The position numbers and the translations under genes are program-made. Below are positions 4,626 through 48,646 of a stretch of 64,000 bases of DNA, one piece after another. Within the stretch, counting starts at the first letter, position 1, and the number at the start of each line of letters is the position of its first letter. Source of the DNA: an uncultured bacterium (lineage in GTDB: Bacteria > Babelota > Babeliae > Babelales > Babelaceae); contig CAWFXL010000001.1 of NCBI GenBank assembly GCA_963819815.1, positions 768,001 to 832,000 on the forward strand. Direction: 5' to 3'. The notes beneath the pieces were generated by a model. It was not told the DNA's origin, did not search any database, and worked only from the letters and a program-made list of their open reading frames with translations.

Positions 4626-4701
4626 TGGAGCGGGAAACGGGACTCGAACCCGCAACCTACAGCTTGGAAGGCTGTCGCTCTACCAATTGAGCTATTCCCG
4701 C
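4626..4701 (-). tRNA. tRNA-Gly (TCC)
   Basis: 76-nt cloverleaf, loop CT-TCC-AA, CCA end. Confidence 0.97.
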
Positions 4702-4716
4702 ACTTATATCAACTTC

Positions 4717-4801
4717 TGGTGGCGAGAGTAGGATTCGAACCTACGAAGGCTGAGCCAACGGATTTACAGTCCGTCCCCTTTGACCGCTCGGGAATCTCGC
4801 C
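4717..4801 (-). tRNA. tRNA-Tyr (GTA)
   Basis: 85 nt with long variable arm, loop CT-GTA-AA, CCA end. Confidence 0.97.
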
Positions 4802-7084: not shown

Positions 7085-8620
7085 ATGAAGCTCTTAACTA
7101 AATCTCTTGGGTTACTTCTAACCCTTACCTTGCTCGCACCGGCGTTAGCAAAATCGGACAAACACCGCCATAACGAAGAAACCGTAAAATTTGTTCAAGG
7201 TGGTGCTCCATCAGGAGGAAATGGCACTAAAAAGCATCCTTTTGCAACACTCAAAGAAGCAGCGGCGAGTGCCTGGGACGTCCTTATTGTGCTTTCCTCA
7301 GCGGTTGCGTTAACCGATGGCATCACCCTCACCAATCAAAAGCTCATCGGTGACATATGTGACTCTAATGTAGCTCTATTCCCTAAGCTTACTACCAATC
7401 AAGTGACTGTTATCGGTGATGGTGCCATTGAAAATATCTTCTTTACTAATATGTTAGGTTCCGCCATCAATTATGACAAGGCAGAAAATCTTATCGTGAA
7501 AAATGTCAGCATTGATGGTTTTAATACAAAGACACCACCTACAGGAGCACCAGCAATCACCGGTACCTGCCCACAATCTGGAAATACTCTTATTGAAAAC
7601 GTAATTATCCGCAACGATAATGGCGCAAATGCCGGTATCTATGACAGCCCCACAGGTAGTGGTGTATCAAGAGAATTAACAATATGCGGGTGTGAGCTTA
7701 CTATGATCACTAACAATGGTATAGAAACAGCACCGGATAAGGGCGCTTCCGCTGACGTCGTTATCAAAGACTCGTATTTACATGATTTTAATAATAGTAA
7801 TGCTAATGGCATATTCGTATTTTTAGGTTCTACCTCTAGTGCTACAGAGACTATTCTGGTTAAGAACTCATCTTTTTATAATGTTGGAGTTAGCGAAGGC
7901 CTCGAAATTCGTTTAAGCCTCTCTAATAATTCAAATCTAGAAATGAAAGTTGACTCCTGCTCATTCAAAGAAGCCGAATCCGTCAACGCCGTAGTTGCTC
8001 TGTTCTCTCAAAATAGCAGTTCATCATGCGAAATAGTGATAGAAAACTCAGTAAGTACGAATCTGGTGAAATTTTTCTCAGAGATTTTATCAGATGTTAT
8101 CAGACAAGACAATAGACTCTGCGGAAACACGGTGACCGGAGGCACTTTCTATGAAACACACAATAATGGAAAATCTGCAGTCATAACTGATATCAAAGGA
8201 AACATCTTTAATGGAACCACTGTAATACAAATTGATCCCCTCATCTCCGTCGGCACTTACTCCCCCCTGTATATAACGGCTGAACATAATTGTTTCACAG
8301 GCACCAGTAATGCTTTTCTTACCCATGCTAAAGGCAATATTGGTACAGCAGTCATTGATGCCCATTGTAACTCATTTTCAGGGTTCAATCCTGATATTTC
8401 AGATTCTGGAAGCAATGTTGCCTACCTGGTAAGCAAAAACTTCTGGGGCCCTTTAAAAGCCTGCACAGGTGGTACTTGCCCTCCATCCCAAATCTGTCAA
8501 AATGGTTTTTGTCTGGGACCAACAACTACTCTTAACTCTTTCATTGGTTACTTAGATGCAAGTGATCCACTTACAGTCTCTATCAAGTGTCCTAAGACCT
8601 GCCACTCATCTGACATATGA
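7085..8620 (+). CDS. Secreted right-handed beta-helix protein, copy 2
   Basis: Paralog of 5268..6824 with near-identical N- and C-terminal regions. Confidence 0.7.
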   Translation: MKLLTKSLGLLLTLTLLAPALAKSDKHRHNEETVKFVQGGAPSGGNGTKKHPFATLKEAAASAWDVLIVLSSAVALTDGITLTNQKLIGDICDSNVALFPKLTTNQVTVIGDGAIENIFFTNMLGSAINYDKAENLIVKNVSIDGFNTKTPPTGAPAITGTCPQSGNTLIENVIIRNDNGANAGIYDSPTGSGVSRELTICGCELTMITNNGIETAPDKGASADVVIKDSYLHDFNNSNANGIFVFLGSTSSATETILVKNSSFYNVGVSEGLEIRLSLSNNSNLEMKVDSCSFKEAESVNAVVALFSQNSSSSCEIVIENSVSTNLVKFFSEILSDVIRQDNRLCGNTVTGGTFYETHNNGKSAVITDIKGNIFNGTTVIQIDPLISVGTYSPLYITAEHNCFTGTSNAFLTHAKGNIGTAVIDAHCNSFSGFNPDISDSGSNVAYLVSKNFWGPLKACTGGTCPPSQICQNGFCLGPTTTLNSFIGYLDASDPLTVSIKCPKTCHSSDI

Positions 8621-18280: not shown

Positions 18281-19009
18281 ATGAAGCATCTTATTCTTAT
18301 GGCAAGCACTCTTCTTGCCAGCTCATATATCTTTGGTGATTCCGAGACCAACTTACGTAAAGAATGTGCTCCGATATACGCCGAAAACTGTGAAAAGATT
18401 CTGTCTCAATTTAGGAAGCCAATAACCGTTAAGCAGAGTAATGCCTATAATAGGACCACCTTGCGTAAAGGATGTGATGCTATCTACACCGAAGATATCG
18501 AACATATTCTGACGCAGTTTATGCGTAATAGCACCCCGAAGGAGCGCAAAGACTATAAAAAGTTCATGCTTCTTATTAAACTGCGCAATGATCTGCTATT
18601 TAAATTGACTGCATTTGAACAAACCATTAAGTCTGAGGAGCGTGCACTTTTAAGGACACCGCTTACCAATTATACCGCATGCAGATCTCGGGTAGGTGTC
18701 GCTTTTGGCTATGAATTTCAAACAGCCAACCCCTCCAAAAAAGTTCTTTCACCATGCGAAACCAGTTATGCAGCACAAATGCAACTAGTGCTTAACTCAG
18801 TCAGAAAATCGGTATCGAATAGAACACTCAAAAGATACGAAAGCTTTATGCTCATGCTTAAATATTATGAAGATCTTGGAGCCATGCTCAATGAGTTTGA
18901 AAGAAAAACCAACTATACGATTCGAACTCGACTCCGTGAACCCTTAGTGAAATATCTTAACTGCAGAAATAGTCTCATACTCCGTCAAGTGCAGTCTGTT
19001 CCTCAGTGA
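18281..19009 (+). CDS. Secreted hypothetical protein with internal Cys-anchored repeats
   Basis: Signal peptide; CAPIYAE/CDAIYTE/CETSYAA repeats. Confidence 0.65.
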   Translation: MKHLILMASTLLASSYIFGDSETNLRKECAPIYAENCEKILSQFRKPITVKQSNAYNRTTLRKGCDAIYTEDIEHILTQFMRNSTPKERKDYKKFMLLIKLRNDLLFKLTAFEQTIKSEERALLRTPLTNYTACRSRVGVAFGYEFQTANPSKKVLSPCETSYAAQMQLVLNSVRKSVSNRTLKRYESFMLMLKYYEDLGAMLNEFERKTNYTIRTRLREPLVKYLNCRNSLILRQVQSVPQ

Positions 19010-20235
19010 ATTCCTGAGGTGAAATACCTCAAGAAGTTCATCCACTGATGCTCGTGTGCAAATGATCCTGTATACGAACTATCAATGTGCGAAAGCGGAA
19101 AATACCATGAGCATCCTTGCAGAGTCTTACACAAAGGCCCTGCAACTGAAGCATCTACCATAAGGCTTAGGACTTCCCGAGCATGCAAAAGTTCACTAAT
19201 AAGTAATTCGGTATCGGGAGTAAGCTGATGCTCCATAAGTTCAGCATATAATGCTTCAATAGATTCTCTCACATCAACATAAAACTGCAATGCTGTCACC
19301 GGATGAAGTGATAGGCGAGCATGACATAAGATCTCCATAAGATGATCTATCTGTAAGATGGTATTGACGAGCTTATCAACAACCTCTGCGAAATAAGTCG
19401 TTAAGGTAAGATCAAGCAATGAAAGACTGAACCGCTCATGACCTCTCAGTATTTGAATCCGTTCGTAGCTATAGACAAGACGCTTGCCAGCCCTTAAAGC
19501 AGAATCCTCTCCCAAGGATTCTATGACTTTTTTGTAGTCCCACCCATCTTTCTCTTCGCAATCTTGTGATGCAACCAGATAGTGCACTGTGTCTTGTATC
19601 TGATAGGCAACTTCAAGCATCGCCATATAGCATGAATCAAATCCCAGGATATCAAGTTTTCTTTGAAGCACAGAGGTCGCATAAGTCGTCAATTCATGAA
19701 GATCATGAATTGACAGAAATGAGCCTCCTCCTGCAACGAGCATCGATTTGCTGTTCATAATATGCTCTATTTGCCGGTAGAACTCCTTAATACGCACATC
19801 GCAGTAGCGCTTACAGGGAGATCGGCCTTCGTCAGGCTCGTAGAGCCATTTCTGTTGAGCACTATCAAAGGTCGGAGCAAGAATTCCCGTGCCATGGCCT
19901 GAGATAATGAGTAAGGTGCTCCCTTCAGTTGCTGAACTAAATGCTTCCCTAACACCCTCTTTTAAAAACTCCAGGCGCTTGGAAGGCACTTCAACTATAG
20001 TATGGCTCGAAGTCCCTCGTTCAATGATAATTCGCTCTGCTGAACTACCGACTTGTATATCAACATGCACAGCAATGCGACCATCAAGGTCATCCTTAAG
20101 CGCATCCTGCAGCTGACGTACAGATGTACATGCCTCTACATAGGAATCAGAGGCCTCCATATACAGGTATACCGTCCATTGACGAGCTTCGGCAGAGCCT
20201 CCCGCTAGCACTAAGAACAAAAGTAAGCCTTTCAT
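19003..20235 (-). CDS. Clostripain-family (C11) cysteine peptidase, secreted
   Basis: WTVYLYM, SGHGTG (His), DILGFDSCYMAMLEVAYQ (Cys), LVASQ..E..DGWDY; signal peptide from ATG 20235. Confidence 0.88.
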   Translation of the reverse strand: MKGLLLFLVLAGGSAEARQWTVYLYMEASDSYVEACTSVRQLQDALKDDLDGRIAVHVDIQVGSSAERIIIERGTSSHTIVEVPSKRLEFLKEGVREAFSSATEGSTLLIISGHGTGILAPTFDSAQQKWLYEPDEGRSPCKRYCDVRIKEFYRQIEHIMNSKSMLVAGGGSFLSIHDLHELTTYATSVLQRKLDILGFDSCYMAMLEVAYQIQDTVHYLVASQDCEEKDGWDYKKVIESLGEDSALRAGKRLVYSYERIQILRGHERFSLSLLDLTLTTYFAEVVDKLVNTILQIDHLMEILCHARLSLHPVTALQFYVDVRESIEALYAELMEHQLTPDTELLISELLHAREVLSLMVDASVAGPLCKTLQGCSWYFPLSHIDSSYTGSFAHEHQWMNFLRYFTSGIH

Positions 20236-20335
20236 TGCTAAGTGGAGCCTCACTAAGCCAAGCCTTAATGAAGCAATTCTTTTTTTAAGGAATATGCTAT
20301 GATTTTGTATAACACAAGCAACATAACAGGCGTCC

Positions 20336-21247
20336 ATGATTCTCATTCTTCTACTCTATACTCTGCTTGGCTTCAGCTTTACGCTGGGCAAAATTACTCT
20401 GTTCTATGCAAGTCCTTTTTATGTGGTAGGCAGCCGCATGATGATAGGCGGCATTGGCCTTGCACTCTACTATTACTTTTTTCAGTCTACAACATACCGT
20501 CTCCAAATGAAAGATTGGCCAGCATTTATGCAAGTAACTCTTTTTGGTATCGTAGTACCCTATTGTCTTCGTGCCTGGGGCTTAAACTACCTATCATCGA
20601 CAAAAGCTGCGTTTATATTCACACTCATGCCCTTCTTTACGGCCCTATTTTCCTATATGTTTCATAAAGAACGTCTTTCATATCAGAAAAGTATAGGACT
20701 CATGCTCGGCTTTTTGGGCATGATGCCAACCCTCTTTACAGGAAGTTCCTTTGAGACGCTTGCAGGCTCATTTGGGCTCTTCTCATGGCCCGAGATTGCT
20801 ATGCTCGGTGCAGTTGCCTCATTTGGCTATAACCTCATCGCGCTCAAACATCTAGTAAAAACACGACAATGCCCCGCTTCACTCGCCAATGGCCTTACGA
20901 TGCTTTTTGGGGGATTCATAGCATTGAATCTTTCTTTCATCGTTGAGCCGGTCTGGATCTTCAAAGATCCACTTACCTTCGCAGGTTTTTTAGCACTGCA
21001 AATCGTCATTAGTAATCTGATCTGCTCAAACCTACAGGCGGCACTCCTTAAAACCTATAGCTCAACCTTCATGGCATTTGCAGGATTTTTGACACCACTC
21101 TGCGCATCAGCCTTTGGCTGGTTTTTCCTCAATGAAGAAATAAAGGTACAATACCTTGTCTCGCTTCTCATGGTGATGATCGGATTAGCTATGTTCTATT
21201 TTGATGAGATAACGAGCCACAAAAAGAAAGGCCTCAGCTTCGAGTGA
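20336..21247 (+). CDS. DMT/EamA family transporter
   Basis: 10 TM segments in two repeats; PFFTALFSY..HKERL, FGWFFLNE. Confidence 0.92.
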   Translation: MILILLLYTLLGFSFTLGKITLFYASPFYVVGSRMMIGGIGLALYYYFFQSTTYRLQMKDWPAFMQVTLFGIVVPYCLRAWGLNYLSSTKAAFIFTLMPFFTALFSYMFHKERLSYQKSIGLMLGFLGMMPTLFTGSSFETLAGSFGLFSWPEIAMLGAVASFGYNLIALKHLVKTRQCPASLANGLTMLFGGFIALNLSFIVEPVWIFKDPLTFAGFLALQIVISNLICSNLQAALLKTYSSTFMAFAGFLTPLCASAFGWFFLNEEIKVQYLVSLLMVMIGLAMFYFDEITSHKKKGLSFE

Positions 21248-25425: not shown

Positions 25426-28400
25426 ATGATAAGACCTTCTTATGTTGTCATACTAGTAGGATTGCTTGCCATCCCTCATCTTACTTTGCCTTCGTGCGCA
25501 GCAGTTCTTAAAAAAGAGGCTGCTCTTGTCGCTCCCCAAAAGCGCGAGTACGCCCTGCTTACACCTGAGCAACTTCAGAACATGATACATATCCATCACG
25601 AACTTCTCACAGTAGAAGACTCTTTGACTAAAAATTCTGAAACCTGGTATACGATTGCTAATGAATACCGACACCGCTTTGACCATCAAGAAGCGATCTC
25701 TTTTTCTACCCAAATCTTTGAGCTACTTACAGAGCGAAGCTCTTCTCTCGCTATCAAAACGCATAGTGCTCGATGCCTTGCAAAAATTATGCAAAGAAAC
25801 GGCCAGTTACCAGAAGCTCACGACTGGGCTATGAAGGCTGAAGCGTGGGGTCGTACTACTTCAGCGTATGGCGAAACACTCTATTTCTTGGGCTACCACT
25901 ATTACTACACACTAAAAAATCCTAATCAAGGAATAGCATGGTATCTCAAAGCACGACAATGGTCCTCCAATGGTAAGGATATGAAAATCTTTATTCAATC
26001 TCTTATCAGCCTTGGTAACGCATACTATAAAGATGAAGCGCATCAGACAGATGCACAGTGGTTTGTAGAAGCTCTCGAAGCGTTAACCATCTATAGGGAT
26101 ACAGAGCTCATAGCAAAAGCATATATCGGCCTTGGTAACGCCAGATACACCGATAAAAAGCATAAAAACCACGCTCAGTGGTACCTTAATGCCCTTGACG
26201 AACTTGGCCAAGACGGTGACATAACACTACGAGCAGCAGCTCTTATCGGTCTTGGCAATGCTCGCTATACTGATAAAAAAAAAGGACGAGAATATTGGTT
26301 TAAGCAAGCCCTTCAAGTACTCGGTCCCCGCGGCGACAAAAATCTAAGGGCTCAGGCACTCATGGGACTTGGTAACATCAAACATACTGATGAAACACAT
26401 AGAAGCCACACATGGTATCTCGAGGCACGTGAGCTACTTGGCGAAAATGGTGACAAAGACTTACGAGCACGAGCCTGCATTGGCCTTGGTAACGCCAAAT
26501 ATACTGATAATACTGATAGTAAGCTTAGCACCGATGCCCAATGGTATCTGAACGCGCTCAATTTGCTAGGCAAAGATGGCACTAGTAACCTACAGGTCCA
26601 AGCTTTCATCGGCCTTGGCAATGTCAGACATACTGATGATACTCATCCCAAAAGTCATGCCTGGTATCTCGAGGCCCTTGCACTACTAGGTAAAAATGGT
26701 GATAAAGAACTACGAGCACGAGCCTGCATCGGCCTTGGTAATGCCAAAGAACCCCATGCTACTGGCCAAAGCTACGTTCAGTGGTATGTAGATGCGCTCG
26801 GCTTATTGGACAAAGAGGAGGACAGAGATCTCAAAGCGCAAACTCTTATGAGACTTGGCCATGCCAGACATACTGACGCTCAACACCCTAAACAAGCCGA
26901 TTGGTACGTAGATGCTCGTAATACACTTAGTAAAGAAGGCACCAGAGATTTACGAGCTGAGGTTTGTATTTGCCTAGGCAATACGCGATATGTTGATGAT
27001 GAGATTTGGTCAAGTGAGCAGTGGTTTCTAGAAGCTCTCACAATTCTTGGCGACGACGGGGATAGAAGTCTTTATGCGCAAGCTCTCATTGGACTTGGAA
27101 ACGCTCAATACACCAACAAAAAACGTGACCAATCCTCATGGTTTAGAGAAGCACTCCAGATACTTGGTAAGAATGGGGTCACTACCCTTCGGGCCCAGGC
27201 TCTGATTGGCCTGGGGAATACTAGATATGTTGATAAGGAACATCCAACACAAGCCATATGGTACCAAGAAGCACTTATGGTACTTGAAGCAGAATCGCAC
27301 GGTGCCCTATATGCTCAAGCTCTTATCGGTCTTGGTAACTATTATTGTGGACAAAGAGTTAACGCCAAAGGAATAACCTATTTTCAGCAAGCTTTAACGT
27401 GTGCCCCTGCAGAAATGCATCCTTCCATTCAGCAAAAGATAGACCATTCGCAGGAAATAATAAGTACAGGCTCAGTTTGCACAAGCATTGATGCAGACCT
27501 AGAGACCCTTCTCATTCTCAAGGAAGATAGGGATGTGACCGTCCGAGCACAAGCTCTTATTAGACTTGCTAATTGGGGATATACTGACAGGGCTCATCCT
27601 AAAGAAGTTGATTGGTACCTCGATGCACTAGAGGTGCTCGGCACAAGCGGCAGTAACGATCTTCGAGCACGAGCGCTTATTGGGCTTGGCAATAAAAAAT
27701 ATAGCACTAAGACACGTGATAAGAATTACTGGTTTGTGCAAGCGCTAAATCTCCTCGAAAATGATGGTGATCCAGTACTCCAGGCAAAGGCTCTTATTGG
27801 CCTTGGCAATGGCAAATATTTCCATAGTGGAGGACGAGCTCACTGGTATCTGAAAGCACTCTCCCTACTCGGTGAAAATGCCCCCTCTGAAATCTCTGCT
27901 CAAGCACTTATTGGACTTGGCAATGCCCGATATACCGACAATACACATACGAGCAATACTCAATGGTATGTTGAAGCACTCTCCATACTTGGCAAGGATC
28001 GCGAAAAGAACTTACAAGCCAGAGCTCTTATCGGTCTTGGTAACGCTCGGCATGTTGATGAAACACATGCGAATCATGCCCTGTGGTTCCTCGATGCATT
28101 GAGAGTTCTTGGCGAAGATGGCGATAGAGATGTTCAAGCAAAAGCTTTCATTGGCCTTGGCAATGCTCAATATGTCGAGAAGGACAAAGAGCGAAGTACA
28201 TGGTATCTAAAGGCACTCGATGTGTTGGGTAATGACGGCAATCAAGATCTTCAGGCTCAAGCTCTTATCGGTCTTGGCAACTCTCGGTATGTGGACGAAA
28301 CCCATCCAGATCATGCTCAGTGGTACCATGATGCCCTCACGAAGCTCGGTGATGCAGGTGATAAAACTGTACGTGCTAACGCGCTGGTCGGACTTGGAAA

Positions 28401-29637
28401 TCACCACTGCTGGACAAGTGATAACGCACATGGCGTATCCTTTTATCAGCAGGCTTTAGTCTATGCATCAGAGGAAATGAAAGACAACATTCAACAAAAG
28501 ATAGACCAGGCTCAGACCTATGTTGAGCGTGAAAAATCCCGTATTATACGTCTTGATAAGCTCAAGAAACTCGTTAATAATGGCGACACAGCTCTACGAG
28601 CTCAAGCGCTGATTGAACTTGGTAAGCTAATCCATACGGACGAAACCCACCAAACTCCAGCTGCTTGGTTCCTCGATGCACTGAACGCCCTGGGTGATAC
28701 TGGCAATAGAGGACTTCGAGCTCAAGCGTGTATAGAACTTGGCAATACCAACTTTACTGATTCTCGACATACCCAAGTTCAGTGGTATCTCCATGCTCTC
28801 ACCATGCTCGATAGAGATCACGATCACGACCTCTATGCTGAAGCCCTTATAGGTCTTGGGGCTACAGACTACGTCGATGATACTCACAAAACTCAGGCTG
28901 ACTGGTTCTTAGATGCGCTCAGAATCCTAGGTAACGACGGTACTATAAGTCTCCGAGTAAAAGCTTACCTTGCTCTTGGCAATGGTCAGTATAGAGGTAT
29001 ACATAATGAATATGCTAATAGCTCTCATTGGTATCTAGAAGCACTCAGAATACTTGGCGATAAAGGTGATAACGTATTACGAGCTACCGCATGCATGGGT
29101 CTTGGTCGGGTGAGGTATTTAGATGCAACTCATACCCACAGCGGTCAATGGTACCTAGCTGCGCTTGCCATTCTTACTAACGGTGATGATACAAACCTAG
29201 AAGCTCAAGCTCTTCTTAACCTTGGTGACCTCAGATACCGGTGTAACCACCACCCTCCGACCTATTGGTACGAAAAAGCACTTACCGTTCTCGACAGAGG
29301 TGGCAGTAGAACTATACGAGCCCAAGTCCTTATAGGCCTCGGAGACTACTACTGTACTTGCGTGCCAAACGATATTCCGTTAGGAATAAAGAAATATCAG
29401 GAGGCTTTAGCGCATGCTCCAGAAGACCTGCAGGTCCTTATTAGAGAAAAAATAAACGCAAGGCAACCGTCTAGTCGACAAAAGAATGGGGGGGTTTTAG
29501 CTCAGGCTCCAGAGCACCTGCAATTCCTTACGAGAACAAAAAGGGAAACTCAGCAAGCAACTATTCGACAAGTAAGCCTTTTGCAGCGTGTCCAGCAGAT
29601 AAAAGACAAAATCGGCCAACCTGTCAGCTCTAAATAA
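25426..29637 (+). CDS. Giant secreted TPR-like repeat protein (about 27 x 38-43 aa LGN-type repeats)
   Basis: Signal peptide; consensus AQALIGLGNARYTDxxH...WYLxALxxLGxxGDxxLR. Confidence 0.85.
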   Translation: MIRPSYVVILVGLLAIPHLTLPSCAAVLKKEAALVAPQKREYALLTPEQLQNMIHIHHELLTVEDSLTKNSETWYTIANEYRHRFDHQEAISFSTQIFELLTERSSSLAIKTHSARCLAKIMQRNGQLPEAHDWAMKAEAWGRTTSAYGETLYFLGYHYYYTLKNPNQGIAWYLKARQWSSNGKDMKIFIQSLISLGNAYYKDEAHQTDAQWFVEALEALTIYRDTELIAKAYIGLGNARYTDKKHKNHAQWYLNALDELGQDGDITLRAAALIGLGNARYTDKKKGREYWFKQALQVLGPRGDKNLRAQALMGLGNIKHTDETHRSHTWYLEARELLGENGDKDLRARACIGLGNAKYTDNTDSKLSTDAQWYLNALNLLGKDGTSNLQVQAFIGLGNVRHTDDTHPKSHAWYLEALALLGKNGDKELRARACIGLGNAKEPHATGQSYVQWYVDALGLLDKEEDRDLKAQTLMRLGHARHTDAQHPKQADWYVDARNTLSKEGTRDLRAEVCICLGNTRYVDDEIWSSEQWFLEALTILGDDGDRSLYAQALIGLGNAQYTNKKRDQSSWFREALQILGKNGVTTLRAQALIGLGNTRYVDKEHPTQAIWYQEALMVLEAESHGALYAQALIGLGNYYCGQRVNAKGITYFQQALTCAPAEMHPSIQQKIDHSQEIISTGSVCTSIDADLETLLILKEDRDVTVRAQALIRLANWGYTDRAHPKEVDWYLDALEVLGTSGSNDLRARALIGLGNKKYSTKTRDKNYWFVQALNLLENDGDPVLQAKALIGLGNGKYFHSGGRAHWYLKALSLLGENAPSEISAQALIGLGNARYTDNTHTSNTQWYVEALSILGKDREKNLQARALIGLGNARHVDETHANHALWFLDALRVLGEDGDRDVQAKAFIGLGNAQYVEKDKERSTWYLKALDVLGNDGNQDLQAQALIGLGNSRYVDETHPDHAQWYHDALTKLGDAGDKTVRANALVGLGNHHCWTSDNAHGVSFYQQALVYASEEMKDNIQQKIDQAQTYVEREKSRIIRLDKLKKLVNNGDTALRAQALIELGKLIHTDETHQTPAAWFLDALNALGDTGNRGLRAQACIELGNTNFTDSRHTQVQWYLHALTMLDRDHDHDLYAEALIGLGATDYVDDTHKTQADWFLDALRILGNDGTISLRVKAYLALGNGQYRGIHNEYANSSHWYLEALRILGDKGDNVLRATACMGLGRVRYLDATHTHSGQWYLAALAILTNGDDTNLEAQALLNLGDLRYRCNHHPPTYWYEKALTVLDRGGSRTIRAQVLIGLGDYYCTCVPNDIPLGIKKYQEALAHAPEDLQVLIREKINARQPSSRQKNGGVLAQAPEHLQFLTRTKRETQQATIRQVSLLQRVQQIKDKIGQPVSSK

Positions 29638-29656
29638 GTTGATGTAGGACGACCAA

Positions 29657-30631
29657 TCACTTCACCTGCGTTTCTTTTTCTTTCCCACGTTTGAGGGGAA
29701 AGCTCTCACCTTGCACAAAATGTTTTGTTCCTTGAGGTGCATAAAAATAGGTTAACGTACTCGATGCTAAGTCTTTACCCATAGTAATTACTGCATAAGC
29801 AGAAGTGCTATACCCATATCTCAGCGTATATTCAAGAGATGGGCTTGAAATCAGATGCCAAGATGAATCTGCATGCTGCAGACCCTTCATAGTTGCCCAA
29901 TCAATCTTTTGATCATCACTATCGATTATTCCCGCAAGAGTTCCTTCAGAATAATAGCAAAGATCATTCAAGTGACATACGGACTGTATCGGTCCATTAT
30001 TAACAGGATAGCATGCGATTCTATCAAATTGAGAACTATCAGCACCATAGGGTCCAATACGGACTGGCAGCTCATTAAGATTTTCAGCAAGAAGATAGAG
30101 TGCACGCGGCAGGGTTCCATAAAAAGCTCCTACCGTTCGTGCTTGAAGAAAAGACATCCCCTTGCTAAACAAGGAAAGGTCCTGCAATTTTCCAAGATCG
30201 TCCTGAGGACCACGAAGATACCAGACCATCTGGGAATTCTGTTCAATGAGTTGAGCAAGAGTCTCAAGCACCTGTCCATTAGTTGAAGTTGGCCCAAGGA
30301 ACGGACCATTCATGATCAGAAAGTGATCCTTTTTTAATGTCCCTTTCAAAGAAAGCACCGAGGATCGCGTAAGTTCATCAAGTATCTGCCTGAGCGACTC
30401 ATAATTGCCAAGAACATTTCCCAAGAGGATGATCTGCGAGCCTTCAGGTAGTGAGATAACAAAGGCTTGCTTACCTTGGTATCCTTCCTGCTTTCGCACA
30501 TCTGTAAGATGAGAAAGCGTGCGCATGAGCCGTTCTGCCGGCAGCGACCTTAGGTAGAGGATCTGAATTCCTCGTGCCAATAACAGTCCACCTAGAATCG
30601 CAAGGGGCCATACAAGATAGCGTACTTTCAT
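29657..30631 (-). CDS. Membrane-anchored degenerate metallophosphoesterase (PPP-like pseudophosphatase)
   Basis: N-terminal hydrophobic helix; GNVLG / GPFLG / LRGPQD / TLPRALYL / ISSPS at PPP motif spacing; paralog of the N-half of the 764-aa ORF. Confidence 0.65.
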   Translation of the reverse strand: MKVRYLVWPLAILGGLLLARGIQILYLRSLPAERLMRTLSHLTDVRKQEGYQGKQAFVISLPEGSQIILLGNVLGNYESLRQILDELTRSSVLSLKGTLKKDHFLIMNGPFLGPTSTNGQVLETLAQLIEQNSQMVWYLRGPQDDLGKLQDLSLFSKGMSFLQARTVGAFYGTLPRALYLLAENLNELPVRIGPYGADSSQFDRIACYPVNNGPIQSVCHLNDLCYYSEGTLAGIIDSDDQKIDWATMKGLQHADSSWHLISSPSLEYTLRYGYSTSAYAVITMGKDLASSTLTYFYAPQGTKHFVQGESFPLKRGKEKETQVK

Positions 30632-32926
30632 CTAGGCCTCTTTATCGATTTTTTGTTCGATCCATTCATGTTTTCCTACATCGAGCCACAATTCATGAAC
30701 GAGCTCACGGGTGTCAGGATCAAAGGTAAGAGGAAGACCCTTATACTGTTCGTCTTTCATCGTTGCTATAATCTTATTTATAGAATCGATTGAAAAGTCC
30801 GCAGCTTTACTGAGTATATGCAGCATTAAACTCGAACTAATGTACCCTTCTAAGGTAAATACATCAGCCAATGAGAGCCCTTGCTCACTCAATGCTCGAC
30901 GGAATTCTTTAACGATAGGTAAAGTACTCGTCATAGGATTTGGAGCAAACTGTGAGATAATCAGATCAAGACCACGCTGAGCTACAAACTTTTTAAATGA
31001 CTCATCAGCAAGATCAGATAAGGCAAACAGTTTTTTACCAATAAAGAATTCAACTCCTGCTTGGCGAATAAATTCGGTCGCTGCCAACGAGGTTGAAAAG
31101 AATCCAAGACCGGTAACTGATGCCTCTTTGATCTGCTTTATTTGCGAAGCAAATGTAGTAGTATTACGCTCATAGCCAACATTAACTGCCTGCTTAATCC
31201 CCTCTTTTTTAATCACCTGGTTCGACCCTTCCAAGGCACCAAGTCCGTAGGAATCGCTCTGATAAAGCAAGGCAAAGTTACGCACTTTAAGTGTATCGAT
31301 CATATACCGAGTAAGCGCGAGAGCTTCAGTCTTATAGGATGCTCGCCAATGGACAATTCCCTTAATATCTGCCTTCCTAAATATCGGGGCACCCGTTATC
31401 GGGAAAAAGAGAAAGATCTTTTCTTGCTTTACAAGATCAATATACGTTTCTAGCGTTGGACTTCCAAGATTGCAAAGAAAGAGATTACTCGAATATTTCG
31501 TGATAAATTCTTCAACATTTTGGCGGGCCTTTTCTGGCGAATACTCGTCATCCATAAATACTACGCGCACCGTTTGACCATTAATACCCCCTTCTGCATT
31601 TATTTTATTTATACGGAGTGCAATACCATCCCGTACAGCTCTCCCTATGGGCGATCCTCCCTTTGTAAGATCAAGTGTACACCCAATATATAAAGGAGCC
31701 TTCTCCGGTTTTTTCACCGCATGGTTTTGGCCTTTCTTGCAAGCCTCAAGCTCTTTTTGAACTTTTAAAGAGGGTATAAAATGATTTTCGCCCTGTGGTA
31801 AAATCAATGCTGTATTCATAAGACTTCTGCCTGTCATAGCCTCATAGTAAGCTCGTTTATGAAAGCCATCAAGCTCTACAACATCTTGTGCATAGAGAGT
31901 AAGCACACTTTGAGGAAAAGGATTCTCAATCGTAAGAATGACAAATGCATCGTACAGGAAAGAAAAGTTATGGCGATACCAAAAGTTAGGAGCACTAAAC
32001 AAGGCCCAGGTAAGCCCACCTTCTTGCGAAGGAACCAGCGCTAACCCAAAATTCTGGCGATAGCTCATGAGCCGATGCTCACCGGTAATATGGACATGAG
32101 GAACAATCCCCTTCTCTTTATCCTGTGCCATAGGGCATATGAGCAACTTTCCTTCCGATCCTTTCAAAGCAGGGCATCTGAGTTCTGACGAAGAAGGTAC
32201 ATCACTGATCTTAATCACCTGATTACGATCCTGGAGAAACAGCGCACGCGGTAATGTAGAAAAAAATCGTGAAATAGGGGCATCAAGGTTTGTGGATCCC
32301 GACCGTTGGATAAGCTCTCTTTTTAGACCATACCCTAACCAGGTATTCTCAGCTTCTTGGCTTCCTGCAATATAGATAACCTGGGATGGATTTACTTTCA
32401 TAAGCTCTAAAAGCAGTGTAAGCGTTTCCAAATTAAGTGGCGAGTTATCAACGACGTTCCCAAGTGATACGATAAAGGTATCTGGTTTGGTAATCTTTAA
32501 GCTTTCGTCTATGATACCCCGTGCTGCAAGCTCGGTAAGAACGCGTACCAGAGAATGAAATGCCCCATATAAAGGACCGAGCATAATAAATTCTGAGCCC
32601 GTACGAGGATTCATAACAAGCTCATACACACCCTGATAGCCCTGCTTTTCACGCGCGAGCGTCACCTCTGAAAGAAGTTGAGTAAATTTCTGAATGGTCC
32701 AATGGGAATCTTCAATACCCAAGAACATGAGAGTTCGCGATAGGTACGAAGGGCCCTGCTGCCGATACCAGGATGCATAATCTGGATAAAACTGATTTAC
32801 CCCTACCTGGACATGGGGAGCTTCTTGAATAGTCATTGCATAGTTCTGAGCTTGCTTAAGCGTAAAAGTACCTTCAAGAGGAGCTCCCATGATTAAGCCC
32901 AGAATCAATATGCTACTTCGTTTCAT
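30632..32926 (-). CDS. Secreted fusion: PPP-like pseudophosphatase + type I periplasmic binding (Venus flytrap) domain
   Basis: N-half GPLYG, GNVVDNSP, AGSQE, FSAPNF; C-half IGCTLDLT..G..INAEGGING..V..MDDEYSP, YQSDSYG. Confidence 0.8.
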   Translation of the reverse strand: MKRSSILILGLIMGAPLEGTFTLKQAQNYAMTIQEAPHVQVGVNQFYPDYASWYRQQGPSYLSRTLMFLGIEDSHWTIQKFTQLLSEVTLAREKQGYQGVYELVMNPRTGSEFIMLGPLYGAFHSLVRVLTELAARGIIDESLKITKPDTFIVSLGNVVDNSPLNLETLTLLLELMKVNPSQVIYIAGSQEAENTWLGYGLKRELIQRSGSTNLDAPISRFFSTLPRALFLQDRNQVIKISDVPSSSELRCPALKGSEGKLLICPMAQDKEKGIVPHVHITGEHRLMSYRQNFGLALVPSQEGGLTWALFSAPNFWYRHNFSFLYDAFVILTIENPFPQSVLTLYAQDVVELDGFHKRAYYEAMTGRSLMNTALILPQGENHFIPSLKVQKELEACKKGQNHAVKKPEKAPLYIGCTLDLTKGGSPIGRAVRDGIALRINKINAEGGINGQTVRVVFMDDEYSPEKARQNVEEFITKYSSNLFLCNLGSPTLETYIDLVKQEKIFLFFPITGAPIFRKADIKGIVHWRASYKTEALALTRYMIDTLKVRNFALLYQSDSYGLGALEGSNQVIKKEGIKQAVNVGYERNTTTFASQIKQIKEASVTGLGFFSTSLAATEFIRQAGVEFFIGKKLFALSDLADESFKKFVAQRGLDLIISQFAPNPMTSTLPIVKEFRRALSEQGLSLADVFTLEGYISSSLMLHILSKAADFSIDSINKIIATMKDEQYKGLPLTFDPDTRELVHELWLDVGKHEWIEQKIDKEA

Positions 32927-32927
32927 A

Positions 32928-33977
32928 CTAGCCTTTCACAATCCAAATGAATGCGATAATTACGAATGCATGTAACAGGAGCACGATTGTTCGAGGATAC
33001 CTATCTCGAATTCCTGGTATCCCCACATTGATAAAAAAGGCCATACAAACGGCAAACAGAAATAAGAAGAAGAGTGAGTCACTCTCCATAAAATACCCAA
33101 CTTGAGGAGCAAGCCGATCAATCACAAATCGATAGGCCAAAATACCGGTTATAGCTCCTGCCGTTAAGGAAGCAATGGAAGTTTTATAATTTTCCATATC
33201 AAGAGCGAAAGTGAACATCGCCATAAAAAAGAGCAGAAGCAAAGGGAAAATAATCAAAATCGCCTGACGCACCCCCGAATGTACAAAATCTAAAGCAAAG
33301 ATAACTCGTGGGTGAGCTACATCATATTCCCGATGCGATTTGTCCACGCGAGCAACTGAATACCCTGGATACACGCGGGTCCCATAGATTTTCCATCCTG
33401 CATAGGAAAGCTCTGGTGAAAGCACCAGCTCATCATAGGTTGAATCAAATATCACCTCCCCTGGAGAGACATTATTATTATCCATGGTAATACATATCGT
33501 ATGGCTATCAAAAGGAAATGCGGCAAATGTTGGGTTAGCTTTAAAGCTTACTCGAATATCATAGCGCGCGAGTAGCTTCCCTTGCACGATCCTGGTAGAC
33601 GGTTGCGATATTGAGAGAATCTTCCCCTTTTCAAAAGAAAATTTTCCTAAGGTATCGAGCGAAACGATACTCGGATCAAAATAGAACCAGAGGATTCCTG
33701 AAAACTCAAAGCGGTTATCGACGATATTAAACTCTGAAAAGTCCCTGATATACAGACCAACTTTCACCTCTGCAGGTTGCCCCATTTGTTCAATAGTCTT
33801 GGGCAAAATGGGAAGCAGCTCAGGCATCGGGTCAAGGGTATCTGAGGAACTTGAAATAAATTCCTGACTTGCACGATACATAAAAAAGCAGATCAGTACC
33901 GCCGAGAAAAGAATCGTATATACTGAAAAGTATGCCATCGATTCTGATGTGAATACTGGCAGATTTTTTTGCTCCAT
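32928..33977 (-). CDS. Prokaryotic pentameric ligand-gated ion channel (GLIC/ELIC-like)
   Basis: VKVGLYIRDF..F...G.LWF, Pro-loop FPFDSH, GW in beta9, M1 with IIFP, M2-M3 loop LAPQVGYF..D, four C-terminal TMs. Confidence 0.88.
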   Translation of the reverse strand: MEQKNLPVFTSESMAYFSVYTILFSAVLICFFMYRASQEFISSSSDTLDPMPELLPILPKTIEQMGQPAEVKVGLYIRDFSEFNIVDNRFEFSGILWFYFDPSIVSLDTLGKFSFEKGKILSISQPSTRIVQGKLLARYDIRVSFKANPTFAAFPFDSHTICITMDNNNVSPGEVIFDSTYDELVLSPELSYAGWKIYGTRVYPGYSVARVDKSHREYDVAHPRVIFALDFVHSGVRQAILIIFPLLLLFFMAMFTFALDMENYKTSIASLTAGAITGILAYRFVIDRLAPQVGYFMESDSLFFLFLFAVCMAFFINVGIPGIRDRYPRTIVLLLHAFVIIAFIWIVKG

Positions 33978-34004
33978 CTGTTCGATCCTATCACTTCATA
34001 TACT

Positions 34005-35252
34005 CTAAAAAAAATAGAGTGCTTCTAGCAAGATACGGTACACTGCTGTAGGAACAGCATGAACTACCTGCGCTCTATTGTTCAGTCTACCATACGCAGA
34101 CCAAGTAATATCAAGTTCTGCTCCAAATTGGAATAGATTTGTTTTATATCTGATACGTGGCGCAAACCTTCCCAGATAGGCAAGGGTAGGATCTAGAGCA
34201 AATACCACCGGCTGCTTCGTCGTTTTATCAATATAGAGGCGATGCGATGATCCGAGTGCCTTTGTATACCCAAGAAAACCTCCAACGCTCACCGTTTCAT
34301 TATGAAACCAATACGCAGTATCTATCCATGCGCTCACTGCTTGGGTATTTGCAAAGCTTTGCTGACCGGTAACAGGGTTTATAGATCTGACAGCAAAGCC
34401 ACTTAAAAGAAGTAGACTTGCACCATTCTGGTCATAAATAAACTTGGTCCGCACCTGGAATTTTTTGCCATTATAGGCCGCATAGAGCTCGCAACAAGCA
34501 CTATCAATTTTCTCATGAACAGCAAACCCCTTCTCACTCTCTATATGAGGAGCGATCCGTTTATAATTACCGCCCGCCCCTATGACCACATCCGTATAAG
34601 GAAACAAGCGTACTTGAGCATGAATCTCAGGTATCAACCCATTTCTCGTAATGTCTGTCGTCCCAATAGGTCCTAGAACTGGATAATCAGGACCTACAAT
34701 GAAGGCCAGAATAAATTCCTTGTCAGCACCTCGTGCTGTAAGACGTATTTGGGGGTCTCGGTCGAGTGCCTCAATAGGTGCACCATTGGCAAATGAGATC
34801 GTTTCAGGAAAACAATCGGGGACAAACATAGGATGCCAGTACTGTCCTGCAAGGAAACTAAGGCCAGGTCTATTAATCTCTGCATAAGCATGACGCAACC
34901 GAAAGGCTCCCGTTGAGGGATCGGTTATCCCAAGAAAATCACCTTCAATAAGCCCTTTGAGCGTCCCTTCACGCCAGTTCCAAACCCCTTGCAAACCCAA
35001 CCTACTCTGTATAGCAGTAATACCGAAGTGGCCATGAGCATTAATATCTATTTTCATAGGGTCAAGCAGTACCGGCGCTGGCCAAAGAAGGACAAACCCA
35101 TCACGAGGGGCTTCCACCTGACGAGTATCAAAAAAAAGGTCTGCTGCGGCATAGCCGTAGGGAGTTACCTCAATACCACAAAAATCAATGCTTGAACTTG
35201 AGGCACTAAAGAGCAACAAAATAAAAAGAGTTACACAATGTTTTTGAAACAT
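34005..35252 (-). CDS. Outer-membrane porin (DcaP-like beta-barrel)
   Basis: Signal peptide from ATG 35252; YGY, SRLG, IEGDF, FRLRHAY, LAGQYW, PQIR; C-terminal LYFF. Confidence 0.8.
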   Translation of the reverse strand: MFQKHCVTLFILLLFSASSSSIDFCGIEVTPYGYAAADLFFDTRQVEAPRDGFVLLWPAPVLLDPMKIDINAHGHFGITAIQSRLGLQGVWNWREGTLKGLIEGDFLGITDPSTGAFRLRHAYAEINRPGLSFLAGQYWHPMFVPDCFPETISFANGAPIEALDRDPQIRLTARGADKEFILAFIVGPDYPVLGPIGTTDITRNGLIPEIHAQVRLFPYTDVVIGAGGNYKRIAPHIESEKGFAVHEKIDSACCELYAAYNGKKFQVRTKFIYDQNGASLLLLSGFAVRSINPVTGQQSFANTQAVSAWIDTAYWFHNETVSVGGFLGYTKALGSSHRLYIDKTTKQPVVFALDPTLAYLGRFAPRIRYKTNLFQFGAELDITWSAYGRLNNRAQVVHAVPTAVYRILLEALYFF

Positions 35253-35368
35253 ACCACTACTTCGGAAAAATTCGATTCTTTCGACGTAGCATACCATGAA
35301 GAACCCCTCAGGTAAATGTAGATCTCTGCATATGAATATGCTCACTATACTCGACAACTCAACTGAGA

Positions 35369-36331
35369 CTAGGCTTGTACTGCATTGTAATAATGATCAA
35401 TCCAAGCTTGAGGATTATGCATACGCGTATTACCTCTTTTGAATGCCCTCAAACCAGCATTTAAAAGATTATAGGGGTCTGCATTGCGTCGTGTATCTTT
35501 AGTATCTATAGGAAAAAGGCGACATCCTTGAAGAATACAATTACCAAGAACAATATCATTATGGTCATCACAAGTTTTTCTCAAGCGCAACAACTCTTTC
35601 CTCAGAACGTCATCTCCTGGATATACACCATAGAGCATACAAAATGTTACTAGATTTATGCCGTGCACCCATCTCAAGGGGTATGGAAGACCCTCCTTAT
35701 AAAACTCCTTATGATTGAATGTACTATGCACTTCATAGCGACGTTTTGAAGCGGGACTCTTCATTTGGGTAAACCGGGCAAGATCAAGACCCGTCTTCGG
35801 TATTGATGAAAGATATAATGAGGGGCCGGTACTCAGGGCCTTCGCCACACAAGAAATTCTTGTATTTCTCTGAAGAATCTTTTCAAAAGCTTCCGACTCA
35901 GCACACATAAATACATAATCTCCGAGCGAAGTAAGCGTAGCTATAATTCTCTGCGCGGGCAGAGTGAAGTACTGTGAAAGATCATGCACGATGACCACAT
36001 CAAAGTGCTCACAGCGACTCAAAATATCAAGCATATCAAGAGAAAGACGTGGTGGCACCATTATTGAAACTGCAGTCCTGTATATCGGCTGTACCTGCCT
36101 TATGAGGGCATCGGCATCTCCCCCTATAATAACAAGCTCGCCTATCAGCCGTTTCTGATAGGGAAGTTCGGCCAGATAGATTGAAGACTGTTCACCAATC
36201 TCTAAGAGAGTAAATGGACGCTGATAGTTGCTTATAACAGCCGTCACTGCATCGACATGAGCAGGATCAAGCTTTCCATGAACTACCTGAACTACAAAAA
36301 GTGGTATCCATAACGCGCAGAGTCTGCTCAT
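35369..36331 (-). CDS. Hypothetical protein: degenerate SAM-methyltransferase-like domain + kinase-like C-terminus
   Basis: RPFTLLEIG, EHFDVVI; HNDIVLGNCIL...PID. Confidence 0.5.
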   Translation of the reverse strand: MSRLCALWIPLFVVQVVHGKLDPAHVDAVTAVISNYQRPFTLLEIGEQSSIYLAELPYQKRLIGELVIIGGDADALIRQVQPIYRTAVSIMVPPRLSLDMLDILSRCEHFDVVIVHDLSQYFTLPAQRIIATLTSLGDYVFMCAESEAFEKILQRNTRISCVAKALSTGPSLYLSSIPKTGLDLARFTQMKSPASKRRYEVHSTFNHKEFYKEGLPYPLRWVHGINLVTFCMLYGVYPGDDVLRKELLRLRKTCDDHNDIVLGNCILQGCRLFPIDTKDTRRNADPYNLLNAGLRAFKRGNTRMHNPQAWIDHYYNAVQA

Positions 36332-36671
36332 AGTATTCCTTGCTAGAATTATTTTCAATCATTGTCTTTGAAATTTAGCGTAAGCTGCTCATTTTGACAA
36401 GAGCCTCCAGCTGCCATGTTAAAATAATGAGCATTTCTATACAGCAGTATTAAAATCTCTAAGAAACTGTAATAGAAAATGCTCAGCTTGATTTCAATGT
36501 TAGATCTAACAAGAGCTTATAACTGAGATGAAGGCTTTACAACTCACTCAATAGATACGGTTACTAATACGTCAAAATGTATCAATTTGTCTTGCAACAT
36601 TTTGTAGATCCTAAAAATTCTGGTACAGTTAGAACAAGTATAGATATACGATACACCAGAAAGGCCTATAT

Positions 36672-37691
36672 ATGATAAATAAACGTCTTATCTTAGTAGC
36701 ACTCACCTGTATCCCCTCAGGGCAGGTGTATACGTGGCCCCTGAGCGACCATACGCTTCGTGAGGGCACGTACCTCACAGCAGCATTGGTAGCCACCGGC
36801 GCACTTGCTTACACCTATATGAATAAAAAAGCTCTGCAGACAAACTATGACGCTCACCTGAAACGATTTAAAAATCAGGAGCTACTCTCTGATGGCTATG
36901 AGAAGGTCCTAGCCGCGCTTGCAGACTATAAGGACTACGTGGAAATTATAGAACGTACTAAAGGACCTGAAGATGCAGCATCTCAACTCTGTCACTATCT
37001 CACTCAGGAATTTTCCTCAAATGCCCAATTACTTCATGCATTTAAGAAAGCTGTTCTTGATAGAAAACAAGAACTTGAGAAGAAGAATAAAGATGTTGAA
37101 CGGGCTCTCCTTGGGTGGCAACATAATAAAAAGAAGGCCCTCCTTACATCACAAGGACCTCTTCTAAAAAATACCTATTCGCTCATTCTTTCAACCCTAG
37201 ACACGTTGCATAAAAATATCCCTTATATCGAAGCACAATTCTTTGCAAAAGATCATAAAGATCTTTACGTAGAAGAGCGTGCACTAGAAAAATATCTTTC
37301 AGATAGCGCACAACTCAAGTACCAGCTTGATAAGCTTATTCGTAGCAAAGCACGCGTCGGAGAAAGGTATCCTTTCCGTGCCTATGCTCAGTGGGTCGAT
37401 CACAATCATGAGCTCATCGGCAGCCTTAAAAAAGAGCTTGAAACCTTTACTTACTATGAGTTCCAGGAACCTATTGTTACCTATGTAACATCAACGTACG
37501 CAATCTTCGATATTCTCAAAAAGCAGATTAAAGGCTCGCCTGAGTTTGAGGCAGAATGCGCGCAATTCAATGCAGAATTGCTTGCACGTGCTCGTGAAGA
37601 TGAGAACCGTAAACTCAAAGAGACACTTGACCATATGAAAAAAGAAATAAATACGCTTAAAAAGCCTGTTGAAGGTTCAATAAAAGCTTAA
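36672..37691 (+). CDS. Hypothetical exported/membrane-anchored coiled-coil protein
   Basis: Signal-like N-terminus, TM segment YLTAALVATGALAY, helical remainder; AAGG SD. Confidence 0.7.
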   Translation: MINKRLILVALTCIPSGQVYTWPLSDHTLREGTYLTAALVATGALAYTYMNKKALQTNYDAHLKRFKNQELLSDGYEKVLAALADYKDYVEIIERTKGPEDAASQLCHYLTQEFSSNAQLLHAFKKAVLDRKQELEKKNKDVERALLGWQHNKKKALLTSQGPLLKNTYSLILSTLDTLHKNIPYIEAQFFAKDHKDLYVEERALEKYLSDSAQLKYQLDKLIRSKARVGERYPFRAYAQWVDHNHELIGSLKKELETFTYYEFQEPIVTYVTSTYAIFDILKKQIKGSPEFEAECAQFNAELLARAREDENRKLKETLDHMKKEINTLKKPVEGSIKA

Positions 37692-43386: not shown

Positions 43387-43503
43387 CCCTGGCAGTACCT
43401 ACTTTTCCAGGCCGTCACCAGCCAAGTATCATCGGCGCTGTAGACTTAACTTCCGTATTCGGAATGGGAACGGGTGTTTCCCTACAGCTATACCCACCAG
43501 GAA
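43387..43503 (-). rRNA. rrf: 5S rRNA
   Basis: CCTGGTGG...CACCCGTTCCCATTCCGAATACGGAAGTTAAG...CTGCCAGG. Confidence 0.96.
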
Positions 43504-43612
43504 ATTTTCTATGATCATATGTCAAAAGTTTATCTTGCGGATGAAATATTTGTAGAACATGTATATACTTTAATTACTTACATCTCTATAAGGTATGTCT
43601 AATAATATTAAA

Positions 43613-46637
<3,025 letters not shown>

Positions 46638-46791
46638 AAATTTAGCTAGTTACCCATATTAGCTTAAGTACTTAATTTACAAATATTTCAAAGAACACAA
46701 GAAATTTTTTATCACTACAATAATTTCATATAATACTACGAAAATTTTATCAAAATACTTACTAAGAATACATTCTAAAATCAGCTATTAT

Positions 46792-46867
46792 TGGTGGAGA
46801 TGAGCGGATTCGAACCGCTGACCTTCCGCGTGCAAAACGGACGCTCTACCAACTGAGCTACACCCCC
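46792..46867 (-). tRNA. tRNA-Ala (TGC)
   Basis: Cloverleaf in the ITS, loop TT-TGC-AC, CCA end. Confidence 0.97.
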
Positions 46868-46925
46868 TATAATTTCATCAGAATAAACTCTATAGCCTAC
46901 AGTCAACCAATCATACAAATTTTAT

Positions 46926-47002
46926 TGGTGGGCCTAAGTCGACTCGAACGACTGACCTCCCCGTTATCAGCGGGGTGCTCTAACCACCTGAGCTATAGGC
47001 CC
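46926..47002 (-). tRNA. tRNA-Ile (GAT)
   Basis: Cloverleaf in the ITS, loop CT-GAT-AA, CCA end. Confidence 0.97.
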
Positions 47003-47097
47003 ATGAATCTGAAGCCTACCAGCTTCTATATAGAACTCCATTTAATACACACCTTATATAGAACAAGCTATAAATGCTGTTCAGATTATCTCCCTCG

Positions 47098-48646
<1,549 letters not shown>

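Follow-up and report, generated by a model that had tools for sequence, protein, structure and literature searches.

What would a porin, a predicted pentameric ligand-gated ion channel (pLGIC), a secreted binding protein, and a second phosphatase-like protein do together in one bacterial operon? This question is raised by four co-directional open reading frames (ORFs) on the minus strand of a 64,000-nucleotide stretch of DNA from an uncultured bacterium of the family Babelaceae (positions 768,001 to 832,000 of contig CAWFXL010000001.1, assembly GCA_963819815.1; the whole stretch is referred to here as the window). On balance, the four genes probably encode one periplasmic envelope module, a receptor-channel. 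Functional and physical coupling of the channel, the PPP-like phosphatase domain, and the periplasmic binding protein (PBP) is strongly supported by conserved synteny in 72 of 80 loci and by natural fusions of these parts. The genes and domains of the operon, with lengths in amino acids (aa) and positions counted from the first nucleotide of the window, are the following.

34005..35252, minus strand: DcaP-like outer-membrane beta-barrel protein (porin), 415 aa; from a subthreshold Pfam DcaP match, a family profile compared with 6eus, and a signal peptide
32928..33977, minus strand: predicted divergent pLGIC subunit, 349 aa; from an AlphaFold2 model, Foldseek, and a family profile compared with GLIC
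30632..32926, minus strand: secreted PPP-like/Peripla_BP_6 fusion protein, 764 aa; from Pfam and a domain profile
31811..32914, minus strand: predicted PPP-like (calcineurin-fold) pseudophosphatase domain, aa 5 to 372 of the fusion, after the signal peptide; from a custom hidden Markov model (HMM), a profile, and motifs
30638..31714, minus strand: type I periplasmic binding (Venus-flytrap, LIVBP-like) domain, aa 405 to 763 of the fusion; from Peripla_BP_6, PDB matches, and AlphaFold2 with Foldseek
29657..30631, minus strand: PPP2, predicted second PPP-like pseudophosphatase, 324 aa, whose hydrophobic N-terminus is a signal or an anchor; from homology to the PPP domain of the fusion

The intergenic gaps are 27, 1, and 0 nt. 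A preliminary description of the locus had given the same gaps for four co-directional genes, and they were obtained again with the porin starting at the ATG at position 35252. The open frame of the porin extends to a TTG at 35357 (34005-35357); this start is probably an over-extension, and the ATG, which yields the 415-aa protein, gives a clean signal peptide beginning MFQKHCVTLFILLLFSASSSS.

The 349-aa protein models as a divergent pLGIC

The Pfam search of the 349-aa protein matched no family, the NCBIfam model LGIC_1 scored 19.9 bits against a cut-off of 500, and a search with the single sequence reached sTeLIC only at an E value of 0.41. A profile of 39 sequences of the family matched GLIC at 1e-12 and sTeLIC at 2e-12. 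The AlphaFold2 model generated from the 39-sequence alignment had a pLDDT of 92.6 and a pTM of 0.85. Foldseek analysis of this model revealed at least 500 matches at E <= 0.001; all among the matches listed were pLGICs, with sTeLIC as the best match (2.5e-16) and with GLIC, DeCLIC, RDL, and GABA-A receptors also present. The modelled architecture consists of an N-terminal helix (aa 11-38), a beta-sandwich (aa 69-233), and the helices M1 to M4 (aa 237-348).

We take the Pro-loop F/YPxD, the M1 proline, the M2-M3 loop proline, and the pre-M1 arginine to be the signature residues of pLGICs. The Pro-loop reads FPFD (within AAFPFDSH); its proline, P155, is the same in all 39 sequences, as are P245 in M1 and P291 in the M2-M3 loop, and R238 sits ahead of M1 in the channel of the operon. 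The 2004 study by Tasneem et al. supports these signature residues in part (PMC549065). Hardly any variation is seen in the M2-M3 gating region of the family (YRFVIE.LSP.VGYF), as would be expected for a working channel. The modelled fold and the profile matches indicate that the 349-aa ORF encodes a true, very divergent pLGIC.

The helix that precedes the extracellular domain (33864-33947, aa 11-38) is additional and confidently modelled. It may be a signal-anchor that stays uncleaved ("M0"), which would bring the transmembrane helices to five, or else a long signal peptide; in most matches, the family profile covers the N-terminal region.

A binding protein fused to a degenerate phosphatase domain

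The fusion protein matched Pfam Peripla_BP_6 at 1.2e-40 (140.6 bits against a cut-off of 31.7), and its flytrap domain had PDB sequence matches to 3lop and 4kv7 at about 1e-22. The AlphaFold2 model of the fusion had a pLDDT of 87.4 and a pTM of 0.84. Foldseek analysis revealed 4kv7 (6.3e-24) as well as LivK, AmiC, and a urea-binding protein. The domain thus resembles the LIVBP/AmiC-type binding proteins in its Peripla_BP_6 fold, with target-normalised TM-scores of about 0.85 to 4kv7 and 3lop. In contrast to these proteins, it comes without a LivHM-type permease, is fused to a pseudophosphatase, and is tied to a channel gene.

Since the Foldseek matches listed for the full fusion model were PBP entries only, the PPP fold was assigned from the sequence profile. 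A profile of 22 PPP-like domain sequences matched plant BSU1 (3e-8), PP2A-C (8e-6), and PP1 (4e-5), and relatives of the domain reach Pfam Metallophos (PF00149). Homology between PPP2 and the PPP domain of the fusion was established by HMM (E value of 3.5e-57) and tblastn.

Canonical PPP phosphatases carry the motifs GDxHG, GDxxDRG, and GNHE. Alignment of 99 PPP-like domains revealed GPLYG, GNVVDNS, and GSQE at these positions in the fusion and GNVLG, GPFLGPT, and GPQD in PPP2. Neither retains any of the Asp, His, and Asn residues that bind metal in motifs I to III, nor the metal and phosphate ligands in any of the three. Because of this loss of the catalytic motifs, both proteins are predicted to be pseudoenzymes and not functional PPP phosphatases. 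The three canonical motifs do not occur together in any of the 99 aligned domains; many relatives keep two. A GAFHS element is nearly invariant among the PPP-like domains, including that of the fusion, and is absent from PPP2.

The same genome encodes an intact PPP protein of 537 aa (C1:565168-566781; L094 3169-4782) with GDLHG, GDYIDRG, GNHE, and HGG motifs. No channel gene is linked to it, and the protein may act as a secreted effector or have a housekeeping function. The degeneration of the motifs is therefore specific to the channel-linked copies.

These results bear out a GLIC/ELIC-like channel, as the preliminary description had proposed; the ORF did adopt a pLGIC fold in the model, and the profile reached both GLIC and sTeLIC. 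They likewise uphold the secreted fusion of a dead PPP domain with a type I PBP, which has a signal peptide, a Peripla_BP_6 match, and degenerate motifs. The claim that PPP2 is a membrane-anchored dead PPP paralog held in part: the loss of the motifs was found, but the anchor depends on one N-terminal hydrophobic segment, for which a cleaved signal peptide is an equally good reading.

Channel, PPP-like, and PBP genes stay linked across the phylum

The channel family was present in 29 of 41 relatives and, in a phylum-wide sample, in 82 of 151 genomes, which belong to a single order and show a patchy distribution by family. So far as searched, matches were confined to Dependentiae-type genomes, the few named sources being Candidatus Dependentiae or Babeliales. 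Linkage was analyzed in 80 loci from 79 genomes, comprising the best-hit loci of 78 other genomes (two for genome G048) and the second cluster of the host genome; domains on these loci were mapped with HMMs built in this analysis. The counts were the following.

72 of 80 loci: channel gene immediately flanked, on the same strand, by a PPP and/or PBP gene
68 of 80 loci: the gene downstream of the channel starts with a PPP domain
69 of 80 loci: both PPP and PBP in the locus

Three layouts were found. In the first, the channel gene is followed by a PPP-PBP gene and often by further PPP-PBP or PPP genes. The second consists of three genes in the order PBP, pLGIC, and PPP, and the third of fused pLGIC-PBP open frames, which were read directly in genome DNA (locus L066). 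One relative from the same genus (L015) has exactly the order porin, pLGIC, PPP-PBP, PPP, plus a second channel gene in tandem. A PPP-PBP gene is followed by PPP-only genes in L014-L017, L019, and L032; L055 has a terminal PPP-only gene plus another directly after the channel. The PPP-only proteins of the three-gene layout carry N-terminal membrane anchors.

At the level of whole genomes, the lists for pLGIC and Peripla_BP_6 were compared by hand: 75 of the 151 genomes had both, 7 had the pLGIC only, 18 had the PBP only, and 51 had neither. The 18 genomes with PBP only all carry a high-scoring stand-alone PBP class in open frames of about 320 to 450 aa. The linkage of channel, PPP, and PBP is not due to chance. 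The genes thus remained together in other genomes, an outcome on which the preliminary description had made its proposal depend.

Some channel relatives of about 541 to 577 aa (L063, L072, and L076; also P0234, P0240, P0245, P0270, P0283, and P0292) have an N-terminal extension of about 200 aa without a Pfam match. In L063, two such extended channels flank a protein of 1876 aa with one PPP and four tandem PBP domains.

The same parts occur in single chains

Searched with a profile, 1.84 billion cluster representatives yielded 3065 members of the channel family at E <= 1e-3, the best 150 of which were examined. P0133 and P0281 are examples of pLGIC-PPP-PBP clusters. Seven of these 150 are proteins of 971 to 1113 aa with an N-terminal pLGIC followed by Metallophos and then Peripla_BP_6 (one of the seven pLGIC-PPP-PBP chains, P0145, has no Pfam Metallophos match), and two, of 743 and 767 aa, are pLGIC-Peripla_BP_6 proteins. 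A search for longer homologues with the single channel sequence gave no fused forms; these were found by the profile search.

At the junctions, M4 leads through a polar, basic linker into the conserved N-terminal motif of the PPP domain, without an internal signal peptide. The inspected single chains are therefore true fusions and not products of stop read-through. M4 ends on the periplasmic side, which is consistent with a secreted partner. The anchored PPP-only partners of the three-gene layout mirror the tether between M4 and the PPP domain in these chains. In L045 (G048:C1), the channel and the PPP-PBP gene are in the same frame with a single TGA between them (near 7991-7995), a plausible route to single-chain fusions. 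Some database fusions could be artefacts of such a junction, under other genetic codes; the inspected ones look otherwise.

The host genome holds two clusters and an orphan binding protein

The host is a Dependentiae/Babeliales bacterium, a member of a group of protist parasites, and its assembly comprises 1.64 Mb in 2 contigs (88% complete). With the HMMs built in this analysis, exactly two porin, two pLGIC, and two Peripla_BP_6-type genes were found, all within two paralogous clusters. The second cluster (C1:1028556-1035845; L026 2557-9846) consists of a porin, a gap of 1.26 kb that contains a 197-aa ORF without a family, and then PPP (386 aa), PPP-PBP (820 aa), and pLGIC (347 aa). Its channel is 36% identical to that of the operon, and its gene order differs from the order porin, pLGIC, PPP-PBP, PPP of the operon under study.

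No ATP-binding cassette (ABC) transporter genes adjoin the operon. The sole BPD_transp_2 permease in the 88% complete genome is about 38 kb distant and belongs to a different operon, a complete ABC set that includes a binding protein (ABC_sub_bind) and an ATPase. The view that the binding protein has no adjacent ABC partner is thereby confirmed.

The porin is linked to the cluster facultatively

The porin matched Pfam DcaP at an E value of 1.6e-4 (21.3 bits), and the Pfam scores of 21.3-21.5 bits are under the cut-off of 27 bits; among 16 porin homologues, only two matched this family at E < 0.01. The profile of the 16 homologues matched the DcaP-like structure 6eus at 8.5e-8. Resemblance to Acinetobacter DcaP (6eus) thus lies in the profile match, the signal peptide, and the C-terminal aromatic residue; in contrast to a full family member, only about 125 residues of the porin align and the Pfam score stays below the cut-off. 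All 19 full-length porin homologues listed start with a signal-like segment, and the C-terminal residue is Phe in 18 of the 19 and Ile in one; the porin of the operon ends in ...YFF.

A porin gene was found anywhere in the locus in 18 of the 80 channel loci. It lies upstream of the channel in the same direction (8 loci) or in convergent orientation behind a long PPP-PBP-PBP gene. In the host genome, both porins adjoin the two channel clusters (2/2 and 2/2). The link between porin and channel cluster is therefore real but facultative. The earlier placement of the porin within the system stood for this genome, but it does not extend to the majority of loci.

Comparison with known systems

The channel of the operon shares with GLIC, ELIC, sTeLIC, and DeCLIC the beta-sandwich and M1 to M4, the FPFD Pro-loop, the M1 proline, and the M2-M3 loop proline; with DeCLIC, it also shares the presence of accessory periplasmic domains in the system. 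It differs from these channels by an identity of about 12 to 16%, an extra N-terminal helix, and the lack of detection by Pfam. In contrast to the solved prokaryotic pLGICs, the accessory domains are separate proteins or, in relatives, are fused after M4 and not before the extracellular domain.

The study of Tasneem, Iyer, Jakobsson, and Aravind (2004) describes "ART-LGICs" in which PBP-I is fused N-terminally and PBP-II or Cache domains are operon partners (PMC549065), and it predicted the cooperation of a periplasmic solute-binding domain with a bacterial pLGIC. The operon resembles these ART-LGICs in that such a domain accompanies a bacterial pLGIC, fused or in the same operon (PMC549065). 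In contrast to the N-terminal PBP-I reported there, PBP-I is encoded in trans here, or is C-terminal in the fused relatives (pLGIC-(PPP)-PBP), and it is accompanied by a PPP-fold pseudoenzyme and sometimes by a dedicated porin. A term search of the text available for PMC549065 did not find the word "phosphatase," and one of the text available for Jaiteh et al. 2016 (PMC4795631) found no mention of periplasmic, operon, phosphatase, C-terminal, TM6, or "additional domain." In the literature searches, which covered their sources in part, no paper tied Dependentiae or pseudophosphatases to pLGICs, and the pseudophosphatase partner, the C-terminal fusion order, and the porin link were nowhere described. 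The preliminary description had called the combination undescribed. This agrees with the literature searched, but the idea of PBP-pLGIC cooperation dates from 2004 (PMC549065). The system of the operon is real, conserved, and uncharacterised, and belongs with the bacterial pLGICs that have a putative accessory periplasmic sensor.

A proposed receptor-channel and its alternatives

In the proposed module, the DcaP-like outer-membrane barrel would let a small solute into the periplasm, where the LIVBP-type flytrap domain would capture it. The ligand may belong to the amino acids, amides, or small acids. The dead PPP-fold domain, fixed to the inner-membrane surface through its N-terminal signal-anchor (through M4 itself in the fusions), would dock the flytrap onto a homopentameric pLGIC. 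Closure of the flytrap would then be relayed to the channel gate, and the resulting ion flux, a change of membrane potential, would report the solute. PPP2 would be an adaptor copy without a flytrap, which may occupy some of the five positions or modulate assembly. Assembly into one complex, gating in trans, the porin as entry route, and a signalling output are thus suggested together. The preliminary description had proposed entry through the porin, capture by the flytrap, gating in trans, and a possible host-sensing role; the present results support this interpretation in part. A bolder version of this proposal is put forward tentatively, and we regard it as possible rather than probable: a new tripartite class of receptor-channels that cannot do without a PPP-fold pseudoenzyme as auxiliary subunit, which would be tethered to the pLGIC on the M4 (outer) side and relay flytrap closure to the pore. 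Such a system would be the first bacterial pLGIC gated in trans by auxiliary subunits, would have its own porin, and would read a metabolite of the host cytosol in protist parasites.

A single module is indicated by the linkage, the natural fusions, the co-occurrence, the presence of exactly two porin, two pLGIC, and two binding protein genes in the same two clusters, and the orphan state of the binding protein. Several observations weigh against it. A lone channel stands beside housekeeping genes in 8 of the 80 loci (in three of these eight, the contig breaks off no more than about 4.3 kb from the channel). Among 10 second, more divergent paralogue loci, 6 are without PPP or PBP and 4 have a partner, so that the channel family can exist without a partner. 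Only 15 of the 80 loci have a porin within 300 nt. No ion selectivity signature was revealed in M2, where -2' Thr and 9' Thr are found and neither a PAR motif nor a conserved Glu ring is present. Because related genomes are not independent, the locus and genome counts overstate the support; they describe the pattern and do not test it. Prediction of a complex between channel aa 45-236 and the mature fusion (aa 22-764) gave a score of 0.14 (mark, 0.32), which is evidence neither way.

The main rival to a sensor module is an uptake pathway, which we consider unlikely. Porin, binding protein, and inner-membrane pore would then perform binding-protein-dependent facilitated diffusion: the flytrap would pass its solute on to a wide, polar pLGIC pore, along the steep gradient that starts in the host cytosol. 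The three parts have the layout of an import pathway, both LIVBP-type proteins of the genome are without an ABC partner, and the reduced genome encodes ATP/ADP-translocase homologues, as for an energy parasite. The residues predicted to line the pore, numbered from the alignment with GLIC by the 39-sequence profile, are unusually small and polar: of the 39 sequences, 32 have Gly at 6', 33 have Thr at 9', and 33 have Ala at 13'. However, 16' Phe is conserved in 38 of the 39 sequences and suggests a hydrophobic gate typical of ion channels. A passive pore, moreover, cannot concentrate a solute, and we know of no pLGIC that conducts organic nutrients as its physiological role.

Alternatively, the PPP-like domain might itself be the sensor or enzyme, which binds or hydrolyses a phosphorylated host metabolite while the flytrap binds the product. 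Many relatives, which reach Pfam Metallophos, retain a partial metal/phosphate site (GDLHG/GDAIDRS/GKHE or GDVQG/GDxIDRS/GNHE), and the fusion keeps the nearly invariant GAFHS. This explanation is improbable, given that no aligned domain has all three canonical motifs, that both copies of the operon lack the metal-binding residues kept by the intact PPP of the same genome, and that PPP2 is without even GAFHS. Lower still is the probability that the envelope genes are merely co-located, with no physical or functional coupling. The lone channels of best-hit and second loci and the stand-alone Peripla_BP_6 proteins of the 18 genomes without a channel would fit such an arrangement, but adjacency persists through three gene orders and many families of the order, and independent single-chain fusions exist. 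Least probable of all is a chemotaxis receptor, the role that Tasneem et al. predicted for PBP- and Cache-associated bacterial pLGICs (PMC549065). In contrast to that setting, neither a methyl-accepting chemotaxis protein signalling domain nor flagellin was found in the host genome (88% complete), whereas the same searches were positive in 8 and 4, respectively, of 14 control genomes. The reading of the operon as one receptor-channel module is therefore retained as the preferred one, at the strength stated at the outset.

Surroundings of the operon

Base composition is uniform across the operon region. Among the sequencing runs listed, there was no RNA run and one DNA run, from a soil metagenome, with a 0.19 share of words. 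In the interval 29300-36800, the promoter scan was at chance level, with 12 promoter-like sites against 15.6 expected, and the terminator scan, with 11 terminator-like sites against 6.2 (standard deviation, 2.4) expected, was also rated at chance level. The upstream ORF of 329 aa (35369-36358) was excluded from the unit because it has no family match and no homologue among the first 20 related loci. On the other side, a convergent gene on the plus strand (25426-29637), whose stop lies 19 nt from that of PPP2, encodes a secreted HEAT/TPR protein of 1403 aa, built of a long series of repeats of about 40 residues ("...LIGLGN..Y.D..."); it had no counterpart in the first 20 related loci.

Further features of the window, all on the minus strand, are the following.

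4062-4801: five tRNA genes, grouped near 4.1-4.8 kb
19003-20346: clostripain-family (Peptidase_C11) protein
43387-48646: complete rRNA operon (16S, two spacer tRNAs, 23S, and 5S), about 8 kb from the cluster
49281-51125: 614-aa protein with DUF3419, a methyltransferase-like region, and a Haem_oxygenase_2 iron-redox domain

The distant ABC operon with the BPD_transp_2 permease follows a class IV aminotransferase gene and is adjoined by genes for a PP2C-type phosphatase and a type II secretion system (T2SS) protein F (L093 3294-4394; G000:C1:838293-839393).

Implications

What bacterial pLGICs do physiologically is for the most part unknown; those with solved structures react to protons, amines, or calcium through domains of their own. 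The channel family described here offers a genetically defined set of partners, a flytrap and a pseudophosphatase and sometimes a porin, together with single-chain versions that would be convenient for structural work. Because of these defined partners and natural single chains, the family is a testable case for an accessory binding protein gating a pentameric channel. A further suggestion from the family is that a dead PPP phosphatase fold may serve structurally in the periplasm. It occurs in 82 of the 151 Dependentiae genomes sampled and may therefore be a main way in which these obligate parasites read or exploit their hosts.

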